Assembly (NCBI GenBank): GCA_965261085.1
Contig: OZ253442.1
Span: 1,184,001 to 1,248,000 of the forward strand
Direction of reading: 5' to 3'
Origin: a bacterium
Lineage (GTDB): Bacteria > UBA8248
Length of the DNA: 64,000 nucleotides
The position numbers and the translations under genes are program-made. Positions 26,691 through 35,353 of the stretch are shown here, piece after piece. Positions within the stretch are counted from its first letter, which is position 1. Each line of letters begins with the position of its first letter. Below the pieces are notes generated by a model that had not been told where the DNA came from, made no database searches, and saw only the letters and a program-made list of their open reading frames with translations.

Positions 26691-27768
26691 TCCCACGTGG
26701 GGTCAATCCCGCCCGGGGAGCCTGAATACGAGACTACGGATTGATAGATAACCTAAGCTTAAAGCTCAATTCTAATCTTTTCATGTGAGGATTGCACGCA
26801 GCTTTTGAACAGAAGTATGGGCAGTTGACCTGCCCTCAGTTGTTGTACCACTCCTGTGCTCCGCAAAAATTGGATCCTCCATAAAAAGAATACTTTGCCG
26901 AGGTCGCCAGATCAGGTTTAGGCGTGCCATGATCCATCTTATGGTCAAAGCCAAAGCCATTTTTCATGTTCTGATTGCCCCGTGCATGGCAAATTAGTAA
27001 ATCGCCATGCACAGGATTCATGGAGTAGGAAAAAACGACTAAAGCCCGATCCACTTCCGGGAGGGCATTTGCACAGGCCTGAGGAACCCACCGGAACCAT
27101 CTGGGTGGTGTCCTTATAGGTAACTACAACCGGTGCGTATCAGTACCAACCGGAGTCACTCAGGTTCACTTCGGGAATTGCTCAACTCCTTGAAACGTAT
27201 CGCTCCAGGTCACTACAAGCTCAATCAGGCTCATACCCCTTGCATTGCCCTTACAAGGCAACGTTTCTCGGCATCTGAATTATTCTCCCCAATATTTTTC
27301 TCGGGCCATGTCACATAATCCGTATACTGGCCCCCATGGGCACAGGGGCAGGGGGCGCGACACTCGTTTTCTGATACCGGTGCTAGCGCTCCCCCCTGCG
27401 CGCCCTCTCTCCCCGAGTGCCTTCCCCTGGATTTGAAGGCGGACAATTCACGGACAGAGCAGAGAATTAGGTTGGAAATAAAGAGATTCAAGGGGGCCGT
27501 TGGGTTCATAACCCAACGCGCGCGGAAAAAGTGGCTCGCGAGGCATTGATGCGATTCGCCGAAGAATCTTTTTATACTCAAAACCCACCACCATATAAAT
27601 TGACAGATAAAACCATTATCCTGCATCCGCTTGGGCGCGATTTTTTTAAGCGTAATATGAAAATCGTCTGGTGTTGGGCTTTATGCACAGGACGAACTAT
27701 CGACAAGCACGGAACCCAAACATTCCTGCGGTCGCCAACAAGATCGGTTTTCCAGAATCTCGCGGACA

Positions 27769-29020
27769 ATGGAAAGGAGAGCGGGAGACTTCCTGCGCGG
27801 GGGCGCGGACCCCCGGGAGGGGGAGCACCTCTTCGAGCGCAAGGCGGCGGACGCTCTCTCCCCGCGCGCTCACTCGATGAGCGAACTGCTTCTCGCGAGT
27901 TCGTTTCACATCGCCTCGGGGGAGGGCGAGGGCAAGGGTGAGTCCGGACGCTGGTCGCTGTGGGGCCCGGGGGGCGCGCTCGAGCTTCAGCGGCAGGGAC
28001 GGCGACCTCGCGCTGGACGGCGACGTCACGACGGGTCTCGTGGGCGCGGACTACGAATCGGGCAAGGCGCTCCTGGGCGTGGCGCTCGCCTGGAGCGCGG
28101 GGGATGGTTCCTACAAGGGCGCAGGCGCTGCGGGCGAGCTCGAATCCACGCTTGCGAGCGTATACCCCTACCTGCGCTACAGGATGAGCGAGCGCCTCTC
28201 GGTCTGGGGCGTCGTGGGAATGGGCGAGGGCGACCTGACGCTTAAGACGCCCACGGGCGAGACGATGGAGACCGGCCTCTCGCTGGCGATGGCGGCGCTG
28301 GGGGTGCGCGGGGCGCTTCTCTCGAGGGCGGGCTACGAGTTGGCGGTGAAGTCCGACTTCACCTTCGTGCAGAGCGAATCGGAGAAGACGACGGGCCTGG
28401 CCTCCGCGGAGGCGCAGACGAGGCGCCTGCGCCTCGTGTTCGAGGGTTCGCGCGAGATGGACTTGGGCGCCGGTTCGCTGACGCCCTCGGTGGAGGTGGG
28501 CCTGCGCTACGACGGTGGCGACGCGGAGACGGGCGCCGGCGTGGAGTTGGGCGGCGGGGTGCGCTACGCGGCTTCGGGGCTCACGATGGAGGTCCGCGTA
28601 CGGGGCCTCCTCGCGCACGAGGAGAGCGACTATGAGGAATGGGGCGTGAGCGCCTCGGTGGTCTTCTCTCCCGGTTCGGAGGGGCGCGGGCTCTCGATGC
28701 GCGTGGGTTCGGCCTGGGGCGCCGCCTCGGGCGGGGCGGGCCGCATCTGGACGGGCGGGGCGGCGGGTCTCGCGGGGAGTGCGGATCAGCCCGGCGCGAG
28801 CCTGGACGCGGAGGTGGCCTACGGGCTGGACGCCTTGCGCGGCCTGCTGACGCCGTATGCGGGCGTGGCGCTCTCGGAGAACGGCGAGACCTGGCGCGCG
28901 GGCGCGCGCTGGAAACTCGGTCCCGCCTTCGACTTGGAGCTGGAGGCGAGCCTGAAGGAACCCGTAGGGGATGAGGAGCCCGAAGGCGGACTCCTCCTGC
29001 GCGGCTCGAGAAGGTGGTAG
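27769..29020 (+). pseudogene. Truncated, frameshifted autotransporter-like beta-barrel remnant
   Basis: LLLASSFHIASG...GRWSLWG shifts frame near 27965 into LDGDVTTGLVGADY...LTPSVEVGLRYDGGDAETGAGVELGGG...LRGSRRW; no passenger or signal peptide. Confidence 0.7.
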
Positions 29021-29401
29021 GCGGACCGCTTCCCGCTTGAAGCGGACGCCGCCGCCGGAGGAATCCGGCGGCGCTACGGGGCGCGGGCGGTGGTTCCCGA
29101 ACCGACGTTTCGGGCTGGACTTTGGAGGAGCGCCGCACGATTCACCGACACGTGTAAAAGTTCAGTCGTGGGGTGATAGAGTGGACCACAGCATCGACTG
29201 GGTCGATCTTGACGGCGGGTTCACGGACATGATGACCAGATTGAGAATGCTAGCCGTATACCGCAACCGCTTGATTCTTCTGCCGCCTTCGAATTAAGAA
29301 AGCACCGGGTCAAGCCAACTATGATCGGGAAGAACACAGAAACGTCGCTGGCCCCGACGACGCCATCACCCCACGACTGAACCATTACGACGTGGACGCG
29401 A

Positions 29402-29562
29402 CGGGATGCGCAGAAGTTTCAATGAATCCGCTTTCGTTTTGATTACTAATTGTAGAAGGCAGATTCTGAATAAATTCAGAAAACTTATATATCCAAAATA
29501 ATTTCAATAAGATATAGGGGTTTCATAGCCGATCAAAACCTCTTAATGTCTCTAAGACGAGC
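29402..29562 (+). repeat. Direct repeat copy 2 (161 bp, AT-rich)
   Basis: Matches 8739-8899; weaker similarity extends about 40 bp upstream (CCATCACCCCACG). Confidence 0.95.
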
Positions 29563-29593
29563 GAAGGCAAAAACAGAATGAGGATTGAACCCT

Positions 29594-29875
29594 CTACCGA
29601 ACCGCCTGGACTTCGAGCCGAAGCCCCTCGCGCTCCTGGAGACAAGCGATGACCTCGAACAAATTGCGGGCTTGGGGTCAGCCCCGACCGAAGAGGGAGT
29701 CGAGCTTCCCCGAGGAGGGGAAGGTCGTGCCGGCCCGAACATGCGCATCAAGCTCTTGGGCGATTTTCCGGTGAGGTCAATCGCGACTGATGAAGGAGCG
29801 ATTGCTACGATTGATGAAAGCCGATGGTCGCGTTGATGAAATCGCGCAGCACCGCCTTGCCGACTTCCATCCGAT
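29594..29875 (-). pseudogene. Disrupted addiction-module antitoxin/HTH regulator
   Basis: Fragments EVGKAVLRDFINATIGF, DLTGKSPKSLMRMFGP and QARNLFEVIACLQEREGLRLEVQAVR* separated by inserted sequence; second fragment IGKAVLRDIINATIGFE at ~30378-30430. Confidence 0.65.
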
Positions 29876-29890
29876 GTGTGTCTCAGAATT

Positions 29891-30039
29891 ACTCCCCCCT
29901 TGAGGGGGAGTCAGTGAGGTAAGGGCGTTAGCCCGCTAGTGAACTGGTGGGGGGAGCTTTTACTTTAGAATCATCCCCCCACCGCATCAGCCTTCGCACA
30001 AAACACTCGGCTTCTGCGACTCCCCCTCAAGGGGGGAGT
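29891..30039. repeat. REP/BIME-like element (paired ACTCCCCCCTTGAGGGGGAGT palindromes)
   Basis: Two inverted palindromes with internal hairpins; inverted homolog at 30451-30642. Confidence 0.8.
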
Positions 30040-30232
30040 GAATTTGAAGACTCTCAATGCGGAGTGAGAAAATCCTACCCATCCAAGCCGCATCTCTGAG
30101 ATTAGAAATCTTGCCTGCTTAAGGGGTTGCGTGATAGGAAGGTGTGGAGAAGATGACTTGTAAACCGACGGCGGTGGATGCGGACAATGCGTCCCGCTTC
30201 TTTTAGGAACAATGAAACCAGAGGAGCAACCC

Positions 30233-30364
30233 ATGGCGAAAGAACAGAACCCGCCCCCGAGCAGAGCCGGACAGCCTTCGGGAATCAATAAAGGGGTATC
30301 CCGTAAGCCCCCGGTCGCCGGCAAACCTCCTCCTCCCCCCGCTCCACCTCCCAAGAAGAGGTAA
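30233..30364 (+). CDS. 43-aa proline-rich micropeptide ending PPPPPAPPPKKR
   Basis: GAGGAG RBS + ATG; paralogous fragment at 32880-32951 differs mostly at synonymous sites. Confidence 0.7.
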   Translation: MAKEQNPPPSRAGQPSGINKGVSRKPPVAGKPPPPPAPPPKKR

Positions 30365-30450
30365 GGGAGCCCAGGGTTTCGAAGCCGATGGTCGCGTTGA
30401 TGATATCGCGTAAGACGGCCTTGCCGATTATCCAATCTGAACTGCGGATT

Positions 30451-30642
30451 CACTCCCCCCTTGAGGGTCATTTCCGACCGAGAAGGGAGGGAATGTCGCA
30501 GAAGACGAGCCTTTGGCGAAGTCTGATGCGGTGGGGGACGATTCAAATAAAAAAGCTCCCCCCACCGGTTCGCTTTCGGGCTTGCGCCCTTACCTCACCG
30601 TCGGGCTTTCCCCTCGGGAAGCCCGACCTCAAGGGGGGAGTG
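30451..30642. repeat. REP/BIME-like element, inverted copy with inserted hairpins
   Basis: Reverse complement aligns with 29891-30039; single palindrome also at 31482-31502. Confidence 0.8.
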
Positions 30643-30683
30643 AAGAGAGCTTGCGCCACCCGATGCCACAGCTTCGTACTACC

Positions 30684-31289
30684 CTACTTGAACCGCGCCT
30701 CGTTAAGCCGCCTGTAGACCTCCGTCCCTCTGAGCACGGGGTTCTCTTCCGCATAATCCCCTGGCGTTTTACCCGATCTGTCTCTTGCCGACGGATTTGC
30801 TCCTGCATCCAGCAGGGCCTCCACGACCGCCGGAGTCTTGCCCTCCAGCGCCGCCGTGTGCAGGGGCGTTTGTTTGTATTTATCCCGCGCGTTCGGATTG
30901 GCTCCGGCTTTCACCAGCGCCTTCACTATCGCCGGCGATTTGCCGAGCGCTGCGGCAGTGTGCAGGGGAGTCGTTCTTTTATACAAGTTCCGCGCGTTCG
31001 GGTCGGCTCCCGCTTTCACCAACGCCTCCACGACCATCGGATTTTTGCTGTAAGCCGCCGCTGTGTGCAGGGGAGCGTCTCCGTTGAATATGCTCCGCGA
31101 GATCGGGTCGGCTCCCGCCTTCAGGCAACGGGAGACATCCGATTCATCGGCGCGCTCGAAGAACTTCTGCGTGTTCCAGTCGTCACACGAAACTTCCGCC
31201 GCCGCGTCGGACGCCGCGCCCATCGCCACCGCGAGCCACAGGCAGAATCCCGTAAGGAACACTTTGAAAAGTCGGGTAAGTAGAGGCAT
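30684..31289 (-). CDS. Secreted ankyrin-repeat protein
   Basis: Signal peptide, EVSCDDWNT.KFF cap, three PLHTAA...V.ALV.AGA.PNAR repeats. Confidence 0.93.
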   Translation of the reverse strand: MPLLTRLFKVFLTGFCLWLAVAMGAASDAAAEVSCDDWNTQKFFERADESDVSRCLKAGADPISRSIFNGDAPLHTAAAYSKNPMVVEALVKAGADPNARNLYKRTTPLHTAAALGKSPAIVKALVKAGANPNARDKYKQTPLHTAALEGKTPAVVEALLDAGANPSARDRSGKTPGDYAEENPVLRGTEVYRRLNEARFK

Positions 31290-31312
31290 CTCAATTTCTT
31301 CCTTTTCCCCCA

Positions 31313-31374
31313 CCTCTTCCACTTCACGAAATCCAGCCACCACGTCTATCTTACCGCGTTTTTGAGATTAGGCC
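31313..31374 (-). repeat. Duplicate of the 3' end of CDS 34646-35353 (copy C)
   Basis: CTTCCACTTCACGAAATCCAGCCACCACGTCT...GAGATTAGGCC. Confidence 0.85.
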
Positions 31375-31714
31375 TTGTTCGTCATTCCTGAGTATGCCGG
31401 AATCCAGGCGGATGAGGAACGGGCTGTCGATCCCGACAATAGAGGGTAAAACGCGATAGAAGTGGTAGATGCTCCGTAATAACTCCCCCTCATGGGGGGA
31501 GTGAAGAAACCTACCCATCCAAGCCGCAGTTTCGTAGTACCCTCCTTGAACCGTGCGTCATTCAACCGTCGAGGTTTCACTAAGTATCCCCGGTGTGTGC
31601 GAGGTGTTAATCTTATAGTGTGCATTGCTGGGTTGATCCCAGTCTCATCAGAGTATTGCCGAACTGTCTTGAAAACACTCATCCAAAGTGATGAACATCT
31701 AGTAGAGGAGTGAG

Positions 31715-32641
31715 ATGTCTGAATCTGAAACGAGAACTAACGGAGGCGACGAGAGGCTTGAACTAGACGCGCTAAAGGCCAGCATCCTATCGAACGAAAT
31801 TTCAATCTTCGATCTGTTACGTTCTGTGCCAAGTGGTGATTTTTGGGCGTTTGTTCAGTGGAAGCGCTTATTCTACGTCTTGTTGGAAGAACCAAACTTT
31901 CGGCAGCAGTTTGTAGCAGAGTCGCGCTCAATGATGGTTAAGGCAGGTTTCAACCCTGATGATGACGTGATAGGTAAGAACCTTACGAAAAAGGATGCCT
32001 ACCGTCGGTTCTCAAAGCTCGCAAACAAGCGATCCCAAGCGTTCGATACTCAGCCTTCACTTCTAAACGGCGACACTTTTGAAACATGCCTCGCCCAGTA
32101 CAAAACTCTTATCGGATATGTCGAAAAGCTGTGGGCTGAAGCGTGTCAACTTTATAAGCATGGAAATTTTCCACTTGCGACTTTCCTTTCCATACTTGTC
32201 ATTGAGGAGATTGGTAAACTAACGAATCTCGCTCAAGATCTTATTTTGTATGATGTGCCGCGTCCCGCTAAGCAAGTTCATACGGTCGAACGAGATCACC
32301 GAACGAAGCATTTCATAGGCGTTGTATCGGGGGCGCTGATCAACGCCCGACTAGATCGCGTGTTGGGCAAGGATGTTATCCGCAAAATCCTACACTGGGC
32401 CGAAAGCGACGAACTTGAAAAGATCAGGCAAAGCTGCCTCTACATCGATGTGCAAGATGGCCGTGCAGTGATACCACACGAAAGCATCGATGCAGAACGT
32501 GCTCGGGTGTTCACGGTGCTTGCGGGGGAGTTGATAGCGGAAGTTCTAGGCCATTTCCCGTGGGAATTTGAACGCATGCGTGAAAACGCGATCGCTTTCG
32601 AGAGCGCGATAGGTATGCCTGAGAAAAAAATCGCTCCGTAG
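31715..32641 (+). CDS. AbiV-family (HEPN) abortive infection protein
   Basis: FLSILVIEEIGK, DHRTKH, RQSCLYID motifs; lower GC than flanks. Confidence 0.78.
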   Translation: MSESETRTNGGDERLELDALKASILSNEISIFDLLRSVPSGDFWAFVQWKRLFYVLLEEPNFRQQFVAESRSMMVKAGFNPDDDVIGKNLTKKDAYRRFSKLANKRSQAFDTQPSLLNGDTFETCLAQYKTLIGYVEKLWAEACQLYKHGNFPLATFLSILVIEEIGKLTNLAQDLILYDVPRPAKQVHTVERDHRTKHFIGVVSGALINARLDRVLGKDVIRKILHWAESDELEKIRQSCLYIDVQDGRAVIPHESIDAERARVFTVLAGELIAEVLGHFPWEFERMRENAIAFESAIGMPEKKIAP

Positions 32642-32751
32642 TACCAAAAAACCTAGCTGGAGTCTTCTTTGAGGGTTAGCTAGTCAGAGTCGGTTGTGAT
32701 TCTCGTGAGCGACTGATTCGTATAGAAAGAACGACATAAGCTCCCCCTCCC

Positions 32752-32877
32752 CCCCTCTTCCACTTCACAAAATCCAGCCACCACGTCTCTCTTACGGCGT
32801 TCCCCAGATTAGGCCGCATGGCCGCGCTTCGGGGGGTGCCGTAGGCGGCTTCCTCCCAGGCGTCCGTGGTGGGAATG
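32752..32877 (-). repeat. Duplicate of the 3' end of CDS 34646-35353 (copy B)
   Basis: About 126 bp near-identical to 34650-34775. Confidence 0.9.
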
Positions 32878-32879
32878 AC

Positions 32880-32951
32880 GGAGTGTCTTCCAAGCCACCA
32901 GTGGCCAGCAAGCCCCCGCCTCCCCCGCCTCCCCCGCCGAAGAAGAGGTGA
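32880..32951 (+). pseudogene. 5'-truncated paralog of the proline-rich micropeptide
   Basis: GVSSKPPVASKPPPPPPPPPKKR*. Confidence 0.65.
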
Positions 32952-33181
32952 GGCGCTGATTCATGGGTTGGGCGGCTGATACTCAGGGAAGCAGTGCAAG
33001 TGGTGTCGTCGAATGTTTTGCTCAGAACCACGAGGTGGATTTGCTTCAAAAGCGTGTCGAGAATATAAAACATCTATGGCCTTCTGAAAAAGACAACTGC
33101 CACCTTCGTCAAAACATGCAAGGAGGTCAATGAATAGTAAAATGCCGCCGGAAAGTTAGTATTTGACGGGAGCACGCAGGG

Positions 33182-34537
33182 ATGGAAAATCTTCAGGAAC
33201 GCGCAGAACGTTTGGCTGAACAATTTACTGAAAAGGCGCGTAAACCGTTAGTCATCGAGTTTGCAGGAGTTCCCAAAGCGGGTAAGACGACCACGCTGTC
33301 ACATGTGCAGACGTTTCTCAAGCGTTGTGGCTTTCATACTGATGTCGTAGTCGAACGTGCTTCAGTTTGTCCGATTCGCGATAAAAAGCACGCGAATTTC
33401 AACATCTGGACCGCATGTACTACACTCGCTCAGATTTTGGAAAAAACACAAAATCCGCCACGGCCTGGCGACCCGCAGATTCTTTTTCTTGATAGAGGGC
33501 TTTTCGACTCTATCTGTTGGTTGACCATGATGGAACGGCTCTCTCGCTTGCGCTCGGATGAAAAAGCTTGCGTCCAGCAATTCCTCACCATTGATGATTG
33601 GAGGAAGCGTATCTCGGCTGTTTTTGTGATGCTTGTTTCTCCGAAGGACGCGATGAAACGCGAGCAAGGAATAAGGCCTGTGAATGCGAAAGAGGGCTCC
33701 ATAATGAATCTTGAGATCCTTGGGAAGATTAGGGAAGTGAACGAACAATGCGCCAAGCAACTTGAGAGGGATTTTCGGATTTATCGAATCAATACGTCTA
33801 GTGGTGCTGCCGGCCGAGATCAAGAATCTACGGCGGAGACGGTCACCGATGTCATTCTCGGTCTGATAGAAGAACAGCTCGCGGAAAATATACTTTCATG
33901 CTCCAAGGAAACCGTAAAAGAATTCTTTGGGGACAAGAGTTTTGTTGATGCTTCCAAAGCGAATGAACTGGCGCGGTATTACGAAGAATCTGACGATAGC
34001 AATTTCAAGACCAGAGAAGAGGTGGAAAACGATGCTTCTCGCGTCCAGGCGCTTCCCGTGGTGGTTGTTCGGAATGCGGACGGGGATGTACTTCGTCTTC
34101 GCCGACGTGAAAATAGGGGCGATAAGCCCCTTCATGATAAGATCGTGATCTGGGCCGGTGGACATGTTCGATGTGAGGATGCCGTCAACGGCGCTCCACT
34201 TATAAATTGCGCCATACGGGAACTCGGAGAGGAGTTGCGACTCCAACTCGAATCCTCATCGATGAAACTGATTGGTGCCTTGTACTTCGACAATGGTGGA
34301 AGTACTTCGAAGCATGTTGCAATCGTTTATGAATGGCGCGCACTCAAAAACGACGTTTCGGTGGTGCTGAGTAGAACCGAATTCTTTGAGAGGCGCGGAA
34401 CGTCTCTTAGCGGGAGTTTCGCGTCTGTCGATAAACTCGTTGAAGATGTTAAAAACAAAAAACTTATAGAACCTTGGTCTATTGAGTTGGTACGAGAATA
34501 TTTAGCGAAAGATAAATTTGAGCCACGTCTGTTTTGA
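33182..34537 (+). CDS. P-loop nucleotide kinase (dTMP kinase-like)-Nudix hydrolase fusion
   Basis: IEFAGVPKAGKTT, LFLDRGLFDS; C-terminal WAGGHV...CAIRELGEEL, KHVAIVY, EPWS. Confidence 0.8.
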   Translation: MENLQERAERLAEQFTEKARKPLVIEFAGVPKAGKTTTLSHVQTFLKRCGFHTDVVVERASVCPIRDKKHANFNIWTACTTLAQILEKTQNPPRPGDPQILFLDRGLFDSICWLTMMERLSRLRSDEKACVQQFLTIDDWRKRISAVFVMLVSPKDAMKREQGIRPVNAKEGSIMNLEILGKIREVNEQCAKQLERDFRIYRINTSSGAAGRDQESTAETVTDVILGLIEEQLAENILSCSKETVKEFFGDKSFVDASKANELARYYEESDDSNFKTREEVENDASRVQALPVVVVRNADGDVLRLRRRENRGDKPLHDKIVIWAGGHVRCEDAVNGAPLINCAIRELGEELRLQLESSSMKLIGALYFDNGGSTSKHVAIVYEWRALKNDVSVVLSRTEFFERRGTSLSGSFASVDKLVEDVKNKKLIEPWSIELVREYLAKDKFEPRLF

Positions 34538-34645
34538 ACGGTTAATCTCTGTTGTGAGCAGTCGAAGTTGAGTAGACTAAATTGCAATAGTTTCCTGCGC
34601 GCACAATTTGGCGGTTATCGGCAGATTCTTTTTCTCTACCCCCCC

Positions 34646-35353
34646 TCACCCTCGCTTCCACTTCACGAAATCCAGCCACCACGTCTCTCTTACTGCGTTC
34701 TTGAGATTGGGCCGCATGGCGGCGCTTCGGGGGGTGCCGTAGGCGGCTTCCTCCCAGGCGTCCGTGGTGGGGATGGTGGGGTCTTCCATGTCGTAGAGCG
34801 CGATGATGCGGCGCGCGCTCCTCTTCGTCTCCTGTATTTCCGCCTCCGCCGTCGCGCCTCCGGTGGCGGCGGTCTCTAACTGATACACGCGGCCCCGCGT
34901 CATGCCTTGGACCTCATAGAGGCGGTCCAGGTGTTCTTCGCGGTACCAGGCGAGCATCTCCTCTTTTAGCTCCTCGCCCTCGGGGTTGGGGCACACCATG
35001 TAGAGATAGGGCGAGTCGTAGCGGTGCGGCTCGCCGATGGAGACTTCCAGGCTGTACACGGCGCGCTCGGCGTTTTTGATGAAGGCCATGCACTCTTGCG
35101 TCCAGGGGGAGGGGTTGTCCCTCGATTCGCGGTAGTAATCGCTCTCAAACGCCGCGAGGCTGTCCCCCTCGAAGGTGCAGAGAATGTTGTGGTGCGCGCT
35201 GGCGTCCACCGCGTTGTAGCGATAACCCACGCGAAAGCCGGGGCCGTCCATCCTGTCCGTCGAGTGCTCGCAGTTGTGCCACTTTCTGAATTCCTCGTGG
35301 TTCTCGGGGTCGACGTTCAGCCAGATGGCGACGAGCGCCTGGGTCGGGTTCAT
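34646..35353 (-). CDS. Two-domain EthD/DUF4286-like dimeric alpha-beta barrel protein
   Basis: Repeated EF.KWH..EH / ..AWYREEHL motifs. Confidence 0.65.
   Translation of the reverse strand: MNPTQALVAIWLNVDPENHEEFRKWHNCEHSTDRMDGPGFRVGYRYNAVDASAHHNILCTFEGDSLAAFESDYYRESRDNPSPWTQECMAFIKNAERAVYSLEVSIGEPHRYDSPYLYMVCPNPEGEELKEEMLAWYREEHLDRLYEVQGMTRGRVYQLETAATGGATAEAEIQETKRSARRIIALYDMEDPTIPTTDAWEEAAYGTPRSAAMRPNLKNAVRETWWLDFVKWKRG

Follow-up and report, generated by a model that had tools for sequence, protein, structure and literature searches.

Does the short proline-rich reading frame at positions 30233-30364 of the stretch described here form a gene, and if it does, what would that gene do in a genome where its usual partner is missing? 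The stretch, called the window below, is the whole of the 64,000 nucleotides analysed, positions 1,184,001 to 1,248,000 of the forward strand of contig OZ253442.1 (assembly GCA_965261085.1, from a bacterium of the GTDB lineage UBA8248). Small proline-rich open reading frames (ORFs) routinely escape annotation, and this one had been picked out in an earlier note, made from the letters alone, which described a polyproline micropeptide with a paralog under purifying selection and proposed that it was a eukaryote-mimicking effector, a stalling or leader peptide, or the small partner of a defence gene. On the comparisons reported here the frame, which we call copy 1, is confirmed as a real, unannotated member of a conserved micropeptide family. 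The family is the second half of a conserved, horizontally spread two-gene unit, in which a gene of one DUF6338 subfamily is followed by the peptide gene. Copy 1 and two features upstream of it lie as follows.

30233-30364, plus strand: copy 1, an intact gene of 43 codons, MAKEQNPPPSRAGQPSGINKGVSRKPPVAGKPPPPPAPPPKKR, with the stop codon TAA.
30221-30226, plus strand: Shine-Dalgarno (SD) sequence GAGGAG, 6 nt 5' of the copy 1 ATG.
30176-30204, plus strand: terminator-like hairpin with a T-run, 29 nt upstream of the ATG, from a consensus scan; largely kept in G008, G004 and G005.

The translation was exactly as the earlier note had quoted it, and the ribosome-binding site that it named is present. 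An alternative ATG at 30212 gives a longer frame; all relatives begin at MAKE. Copy 1 matched the profile of the family over its whole length (residues 1-43, E 3.0e-15), it carries the N-terminal motif MAKE[PQ]xPPP and the C-terminal motif KP(P/K)PPP(A/P)PPPKK together with the ATG and the SD sequence, and it is 88% and 74% identical to its orthologs in genomes G008 and G001. What it lacks is the usual position of the family, a start no more than about 30 nt from the end of a DUF6338-subfamily gene read in the same direction. When the entire 4.27-Mb genome was scanned in six frames, two copies appeared in all and no third, the Pfam, NCBIfam and PADLOC models included no family for the micropeptide, an Rfam scan of 29000-33500 gave no match, and the look-alikes in the ESM Atlas reached a best score of 0.76 and provided no lead. 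In metatranscriptome run X1 (5% of the sampled words; assembled contigs only), contigs covered 29769-30041, which is dispersed repeat, and 30638-30860, and not the ORF.

Of the 22 other genomes of the genus, 9 contained full-length matches to the single sequence (residues 1-43), lying within open frames of 43-48 codons; the 19 genomes from the other eight genera of the taxonomic family contained none. Members were also extracted at the DNA level, 13 at first and 19 in all. Each of the 19 starts with ATG, and most are preceded by GGAG or GGAGG 6-9 nt upstream, a few having a weaker SD of the AAAGG or AGAGA type; after PPPKK the frames end variably, in R, RANG, QA, SD, RAHD, RITA, RV or KKK before the stop. 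A profile of 14 members, copy 1 among them, searched against a library of 1.84 billion representative proteins, matched 38 clusters at E 1e-3 or better, 5 of them at 1e-10 or better. The possibility, raised at the outset, that the homologs are only C-terminal tails of longer known proteins is answered by these matches, since they are stand-alone small ORFs, of 38-59 aa in 32 cases, with the match beginning at residue 1 in 33; the six longer ones resemble read-through or frameshift fusions or N-terminal extensions, and none is a known protein with a micropeptide tail.

The family consensus reads MAKEPxPPPSxR...GVSxKP..AxKPPPPP(A/P)PPPKK, with Q also found at position 5, a second variant of the K-P-P stretch, KP(P/K)PPP(A/P)PPPKK, and the GVSxKP centre missing from the short forms. 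Members are basic, proline-rich and 31-52 residues long, with runs of 5-9 consecutive prolines. The only organism labels met were uncultured Nitrospirales and Paludisphaera; the family occurs in environmental metagenome contigs and spans at least three lineages: the Nitrospirales genus, a distant genus and a Planctomycetota plasmid. A pattern scan of genome contigs confirmed at least two loci among the matches listed, which were mostly generic polyproline, and none of 594 pattern matches in viral contigs was confirmed.

In genomes G015 and G004 the peptide gene starts 4 nt past a 202-aa ORF that matches Pfam DUF6338 (PF19865) at 44.5 bits (locus L016) and 41.4 bits (L029), the gathering cut-off being 26.5 bits; the ORFs of G018, G019 and G021 scored 58-69 bits. 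DUF6338 was found in 6 of 51 genomes of the phylum, five of them in the genus, and a peptide gene follows all five genes of the genus (G015, G004, G018, G019 and G021), including in the last three 31-aa short forms that the peptide searches had missed. A metagenome pattern scan yielded five stretches, of which three (L046, L047, L048) hold true members, all DUF6338-paired, and two (L044, L045) are chance matches. A sample of 401 genomes contained 18 DUF6338 loci in 15 genomes, with a polyproline ORF at the DUF6338 stop in 7; among these are the paired peptide of a distant genus (G180, MAKEPNPPPRVRIEKRGLTNKPTGAVKPPPPPPPPPKKK) and a divergent version in the low-GC genome G047. In the phylum of G180 the subfamily occurs in 6 of 33 genomes, with a peptide gene in all six, and on a Paludisphaera borealis plasmid an unlisted 49-codon ORF ending PTPPPPPPKQS overlaps the 3' end of an annotated DUF6338 gene.

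These loci were sorted by identity to the G015 protein (tblastn), the subfamily being defined as at least 40% identical. Within the subfamily the peptide gene was present in 15 of 15 loci (five in the genus, the three true metagenome hits, six in the distant genus and the Planctomycetota plasmid), its start lying -25 to +30 nt from the DUF6338 stop. Twelve loci were at or below 27% or gave no tblastn hit, and a single one of them, L062 (25% identical), carries a family-type polyproline ORF. Other small ORFs were seen at five of the remaining 11 (L056, L058, L059, L061, L063): hydrophilic frames of 48-55 codons with an SD sequence, starting -28 to +16 nt from the DUF6338 stop, several with RG[YV]xP-like motifs and P/K-rich ends (...TPPPKKP). 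Because of these ORFs, small-peptide partners may accompany DUF6338 more generally. DUF6338 is itself widespread, 1357 clusters matching a single query protein at E 1e-10 or better, and in 24 of the 120 relatives listed (P0050-P0148 among them) the C-terminal tail is ...[HND]G-stop or ...GQ[GRK]T.... Such tails would be the out-of-frame image of ATGGCNAARGA, the start of an overlapping, uncalled small gene, a reading verified on P0097, a protein of contig L048.

No DUF6338 gene exceeds the Pfam cut-off in the genome studied here, so copy 1 is an orphan, and no DUF6338 remnant was found in 27000-33200. Copy 1 retains about 45 nt of the usual DUF6338-peptide junction, SD included. With both genes searched for in the same genome sets, we counted 12 peptide genes without DUF6338 (this genome, labelled G000, and G008, G001, G004-C3, G005, G011, G002, G013, G017, G015b, G004b and L040) and no DUF6338-subfamily gene without the peptide (0 of 15). 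In six orphans the last ~45 nt of a DUF6338 gene are still present upstream, and in G427 (L073/L074) an intact peptide gene follows a DUF6338 match broken in two, with 4 nt between the parts and an internal TGA. This asymmetry suggests that DUF6338 needs the peptide and not the reverse, as a toxin needs its antidote. Some orphans bear signs of constraint. Between the G000 and G008 orphans there are 7 non-synonymous and 10 synonymous differences, where about 13 and 4 would be expected under neutrality (binomial p 0.0035; pN/pS 0.24), and between those of G000 and G001 pN/pS is 0.36 (p 0.002). In three further orphans (G011, G002, G013; loci L014, L015, L017) the micropeptide stop overlaps the ATG (ATGGATGA) of another small ORF, which begins MDDSIIAEVRAVRDA and is conserved in all three despite their differing upstream contexts.

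The DUF6338 partner was modelled with AlphaFold2 from an alignment of 49 sequences (mean pLDDT 75.7), giving three long helices (residues 3-28, 36-66 and 70-90), two further short ones and a beta domain of six strands (122-193). The best Foldseek rows were Sm/LSm proteins at E 1.3e-3 to 8e-3, none reaching 1e-3 or better. An exhaustive fold alignment to 48,161 chains had Sm, LSm or Hfq in almost all of its top 30 rows, headed by 6ppv_A (Z 8.2, root-mean-square deviation (rmsd) 2.2 A, 69 of 69 residues) and with 1n9r_A at Z 8.0. DUF6338 thus models as three transmembrane helices joined to an Sm/LSm-like barrel; we call the domain Sm-like and not a proven Sm homolog, because a Z near 8 can, as the tool warns, reflect a common arrangement. 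A complex prediction of DUF6338 residues 95-202 with the cognate 42-aa peptide scored 0.01, which makes no call either way.

We consider copy 1 to be an orphan micropeptide gene whose relatives are second genes of a DUF6338 module, and its product to be, probably though by no means securely, the small partner, possibly the antidote, of a membrane protein. The peptide would be a cytoplasmic partner that binds the DUF6338 protein, acting as an antidote or neutraliser that this protein could not do without, so that orphan peptides could persist alone. Of the roles put forward earlier, the small partner of a defence gene thus named the right kind of gene; the partner, a membrane protein of the DUF6338 family missing from this genome, has no PADLOC match. 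Runs of 5-9 prolines need EF-P for efficient synthesis, so the level of the peptide could follow the state of translation; this genome encodes EF-P. A more specific version, which we regard as speculative and rather unlikely, is that DUF6338 would be a membrane-anchored, ring-forming Sm-like effector, harmful when unopposed, with the peptide as its antidote, the two forming an EF-P-gated toxin-antidote or abortive-infection module on small mobile cassettes. When translation is disturbed, by phage takeover or stress, the supply of peptide would fall and the membrane protein would be released. If this were true, orphan peptides would be kept as protection against incoming copies of the module.

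Several points weigh against the proposal. The support for an antidote is entirely distributional; a 130-nt gene is a smaller deletion target than a 600-nt gene, and several orphans share ancestry, so they represent fewer than 12 independent events. The 31-aa DUF6338-linked forms of G018 and G021 have no central motif, which is therefore not essential. Purifying selection among the orphans is measured by dN/dS, which does not assign the strand. PADLOC has no match for DUF6338, and the fold-search scores lie in the range that may reflect a common arrangement only. For copy 1 itself, translation in this organism is predicted only, the hairpin at 30176-30204 stands between it and whatever lies upstream, and a consensus scan of 29700-30700 found no sigma-70-like promoter on the plus strand. 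With its partner missing from the genome, the peptide may be without a role here, and other orphans are damaged, by loss of the stop in G005, a frameshift in P0002 and 5' truncation in this genome's copy 2 and in G007.

Much of this would also be expected if copy 1 were a functionless, unexpressed relic left after deletion of its DUF6338 partner, in a family that is itself real. The absent partner, the hairpin and missing promoter, the pseudogene fragments and repeats around the gene, the visible decay of other orphans and the truncation of copy 2 all fit such a relic, which is less probable than our proposal and the most serious of its rivals. However, the ORF, its ATG and its SD sequence are intact, the differences from the G008 and G001 orphans are mostly at synonymous sites, with the p values given above, and DUF6338 deletions have repeatedly spared the peptide gene and its SD. 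Between the proposed retention and decay, copy 1 is an orphan that is possibly retained and possibly decaying.

It is unlikely, though worth weighing, that translation of the polyproline run matters and the peptide does not, the ORF being an EF-P-dependent stalling element that tunes the DUF6338 mRNA or a neighbour. The run of 5-9 consecutive prolines, the EF-P gene and the textbook stalling of polyproline without EF-P are in line with this, and in many loci the peptide start overlaps the DUF6338 stop or lies 4 nt past it, suggesting translational coupling. However, the peptide gene is downstream of its partner and not upstream, as the last gene of the module, and the DNA after it varies or holds a convergent gene, which speaks against the stalling or leader peptide suggested earlier. 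Residues outside the proline run are conserved as well (MAKEP, S10, GVSxKP, KK), and the analogous P. stutzeri peptides accumulate as stable products, with 44-114 peptide-spectrum matches reported in PMC10433244.

Less likely still is an active, proline-rich antimicrobial-type peptide that DUF6338 would export or confer immunity to. In favour are its proline-rich, cationic composition and its membrane-protein neighbour, and such a role was raised for proline-rich small proteins by the authors of PMC10433244. However, no signal, leader or hydrophobic segment was seen in the 43-aa peptide, no Pro-Arg-Pro repeats occur in it or in the family alignment, and no processing or export genes are conserved nearby; the 12 loci with an orphan peptide and no immunity or export gene are the opposite of what toxin-immunity pairs present.

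The next question is whether the plus strand codes at all, since the conserved frame could be the antisense Gly-rich one, or the DNA could be a non-coding repeat or attachment site, with the plus-strand ORF incidental. In the codon alignment the wobble-matched antisense Gly frame is open across the ORF in 16 of 19 members, the other three having stops only opposite the variable C-terminal tail (9 of 12 in a smaller set), and summed pN/pS is similar on the two strands, 0.39 in the plus frame and 0.47 in the wobble-matched antisense frame. Because the antisense frame shares the plus wobble positions, dN/dS and synonymous differences cannot identify the strand. The step from purifying selection to a real coding family therefore held in part: the family is real and constrained at the protein level, and the strand had to come from elsewhere. 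The 3'-terminal fragments at two rearrangement junctions, this genome's copy 2 and G007, would also suit a non-coding element. However, between unrelated contexts the homology extends from the SD and ATG to 2 nt past the plus-strand stop, and the codon alignment holds no conserved antisense start or stop, antisense stop codons falling opposite the variable plus-strand tails in 6 sequences. Only purines, A as well as G, occupy the wobble position of K3, E4 and K31 (57 of 57 cases), where the antisense codons opposite (Ser TCN, Gly GGN) would tolerate any base; at A2 and P40 the free plus-strand wobble switches the antisense residue between Leu and Phe. In 15 of 15 loci the gene is coupled to DUF6338 and runs in its direction, gene callers had on their own predicted a protein of 38-59 aa in 32 clusters, and Rfam found nothing. 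The ATG, the SD sequence, the variable stops, the purine-only wobble and the co-directional place after DUF6338 thus identify the plus strand as coding and exclude the antisense Gly frame as the source of the conservation, leaving an antisense or non-coding origin very improbable.

Hardly any credence remains for a eukaryote-mimicking effector that would act with the ankyrin gene as a ligand of SH3, WW or profilin domains bearing a nuclear localisation signal (NLS): its PxxP-type tracts, basic C-terminus and ankyrin gene 320 nt off are outweighed by an ankyrin adjacency that is local synteny in one clade of the genus, the conserved neighbour elsewhere being DUF6338, by the presence of family members in metagenome contigs from the environment, and by the absence of a secretion signal from the peptide. 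The monopartite NLS pattern is K-K/R-x-K/R, and PKKR-stop, with three basic residues, falls short of it by the fourth position.

The second copy of the gene had been described as a paralog, and two features define it.

32874-32951, plus strand: copy 2, a 5'-truncated remnant (the last ~20-24 codons and TGA) with no credible start, from repeat D5 and the codon table.
32743-32884, no strand assigned: 142-nt copy of the 3' end of a DUF4286-like gene, forming the 5' junction of copy 2, from repeats D2 and D3 and an alignment.

The direct repeat D5 joins 30287-30366 with 32874-32953 at 74% nucleotide identity. The counts given for the two copies were exact: over 23 codons and the stop (32880-32951 in copy 2), 7 codons are identical, 13 differ synonymously, 3 change the residue (R to S, G to S and A to P) and TAA is replaced by TGA; by codon position 1/2/3 the nucleotide differences number 3/1/14. 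The related copy is there, but as a paralog it is incomplete. Downstream of a stop at 32706 its frame stays open, and the in-frame starts it offers are only GTG at 32883 and GTG at 32901, neither with a spaced SD, so that a complete ORF, a start and an SD are all wanting. Its third-position divergence is a record of past coding constraint and not of present function. The 3' flank of copy 2 is collinear with that of the full-length gene of G008, which lies upstream of a P-loop/NUDIX gene, and G007 holds a similar 3' fragment, joined by a deletion to an ankyrin gene. We considered whether copy 2 is an attachment-site copy brought in by the P-loop/NUDIX cassette, since the single full-length G008 gene has the copy 1 flank upstream and the copy 2 flank downstream, with an overlap of 85 nt. 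However, the three 80-nt versions have diverged from one another to a similar extent (59-65 of 80), and duplication with differential decay fits equally well.

The region around the two copies contains the following features.

27938-29020, plus strand: ORF with an autotransporter beta-domain match only (Pfam 1.9e-10) and no passenger domain in frame, perhaps a gene cut short at the border of the variable region.
29594-29870, minus strand: decayed HigA-like antitoxin pseudogene with frameshifts and stops (tblastn pieces, E 1e-13 to 1e-7).
29883-30047, no strand assigned: dispersed palindromic repeat to the left of copy 1 (inverted repeats I1, I2, I6 and I7).
30360-30428, minus strand: HigA-like antitoxin gene fragment of 23 residues abutting the micropeptide stop (tblastn with the G008 antitoxin, 87% identity, E 2.6e-10).
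30449-30644, no strand assigned: second copy of the dispersed repeat, inverted, to the right of copy 1 (repeat scan and blastn).
30684-31292, minus strand: ankyrin-repeat gene, convergent with copy 1, encoding a hydrophobic, signal-like segment at the N-terminus (Pfam Ank, 7.5e-24).
31715-32641, plus strand: AbiV-type HEPN abortive-infection gene (Pfam HEPN_AbiV, 1.7e-23; PADLOC AbiV, 2.7e-28).
33182-34537, plus strand: gene lying 230 nt past copy 2, whose 451-aa product combines a P-loop at the N-terminus with a NUDIX-like C-terminal region (Pfam NUDIX and AAA_28, both weak and under the cut-off).
34646-35353, minus strand: DUF4286-like gene, whose 3' end is repeated nearby.

The syntenic locus of G008 is 89% identical over 7.2 kb and has a single, full-length peptide gene directly before the P-loop/NUDIX-like gene, then DUF4286-like and HpaB-like genes; in our window about 2.5 kb, with the antitoxin fragment, repeat, ankyrin gene, AbiV gene and 142-nt DUF4286-end copy, separate copies 1 and 2. 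The AbiV gene is missing from the G008 locus, and the ankyrin gene is syntenic in G008, G004 and G021 and not found at other loci. The junction of peptide stop and antitoxin fragment recurs downstream of the peptide gene in G018 and G021, and repeat D6 (29818-29863 and 30382-30427) belongs to the antitoxin pseudogene. The P-loop/NUDIX-like protein has no PADLOC match, and its gene is a candidate accessory or defence gene. The dispersed repeat, about 165 nt long with ends ACTCCCCCCTTGAGGGGGAGT, also occurs at 31482-31505 and gave 190 blastn high-scoring segment pairs across the genome, 38 of at least 100 nt; it looks like a REP/MITE-like family (repetitive extragenic palindromes, miniature inverted-repeat transposable elements). 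In three metagenome runs the contig depth summed over 29868-30084 reached 20,000-45,000, compared with tens to hundreds for the DNA on either side. Three direct copies of the 3' end of the DUF4286-like gene lie here (31308-31374, 32743-32884 and 34641-34782) and nowhere else in the genome. The arrangement, with the AbiV and P-loop/NUDIX genes between these copies, looks like the outcome of cassettes entering one after another at a single attachment-like site; an integrase was not seen in the intervening DNA. The region is a rearranged hotspot of defence and toxin-antitoxin (TA) genes.

For this genome the analysis supplies an annotation that was missing for one gene, identifies one pseudogene fragment and maps that hotspot. 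The orphan copy, the truncated copy and the survival of the peptide alone are new here, and the asymmetry leads to a testable hypothesis, that DUF6338 is toxic or needs neutralisation, with a possible link between EF-P and a membrane effector. PMC10433244 was the only mention of DUF6338 that we found in the literature, and we found no description of this micropeptide family. In that study of P. stutzeri (Anal Chem 2023), the proline-rich small proteins SEP1, SEP5 and SEP2 are encoded in a predicted operon with a DUF6338 gene and were detected by mass spectrometry; they are described there as not conserved beyond P. stutzeri and possibly of de novo origin. Like our peptide they were unannotated, shorter than 50 aa, rich in proline, located beside a DUF6338 gene and without an assigned function, and they are made and stable. 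They differ, in a comparison by description only, in that three peptides accompany the gene there and a single one here, that the present family extends across at least three lineages and that copy 1 has no DUF6338 gene. The species-specific origin given in PMC10433244 stands in contrast to the conserved unit, spread horizontally, that the present data show.

The other systems that come to mind resemble the module in part. Unlike the leader peptides SecM, TnaC and MifM, the micropeptide is encoded last in its module, and 3' of copy 1 lie a minus-strand antitoxin fragment, a repeat and the convergent ankyrin gene. Oncocin, apidaecin and Bac7 are likewise short, cationic, proline-rich and unstructured; however, they are secreted by animals, contain Pro-Arg-Pro repeats and bind in the ribosome tunnel, whereas the micropeptides have homoproline runs, no such repeat and no leader, and belong to bacterial cytoplasmic operons. 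The DUF6338 model superposes at residues ~110-195 on whole LSm chains of the Sm-LSm-Hfq fold (Z 8.2 and 8.0, rmsd 2.0-2.2 A, 67-69 residues), with 9-16% identity, which is no sequence similarity, and with a barrel joined to three transmembrane helices and known from the model alone. Type II TA systems of the higBA type, in which the toxin comes first, and their orphan antitoxins share with the module a compact, patchily distributed two-gene unit among TA and defence genes and a small second gene that outlives loss of the first, and not the reverse; in contrast, the micropeptide has no DNA-binding or folded antitoxin domain, PADLOC does not match the pair, and toxicity of DUF6338 is only proposed. 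In Synechocystis 6803, according to a preprint (bioRxiv 10.64898/2025.12.20.695498), the membrane protein Slr0489L alone slows growth, and a small protein that carries a proline-rich motif and co-purifies with it, Slr0489S, neutralises it. Slr0489S, of 112 aa, is read from another frame within the larger gene, and Slr0489L has a signal peptide and another architecture. The likeness is a functional analogy only: a membrane protein with a co-encoded small partner bearing a proline-rich motif, whose neutralisation is the behaviour that we propose for DUF6338 and its peptide.

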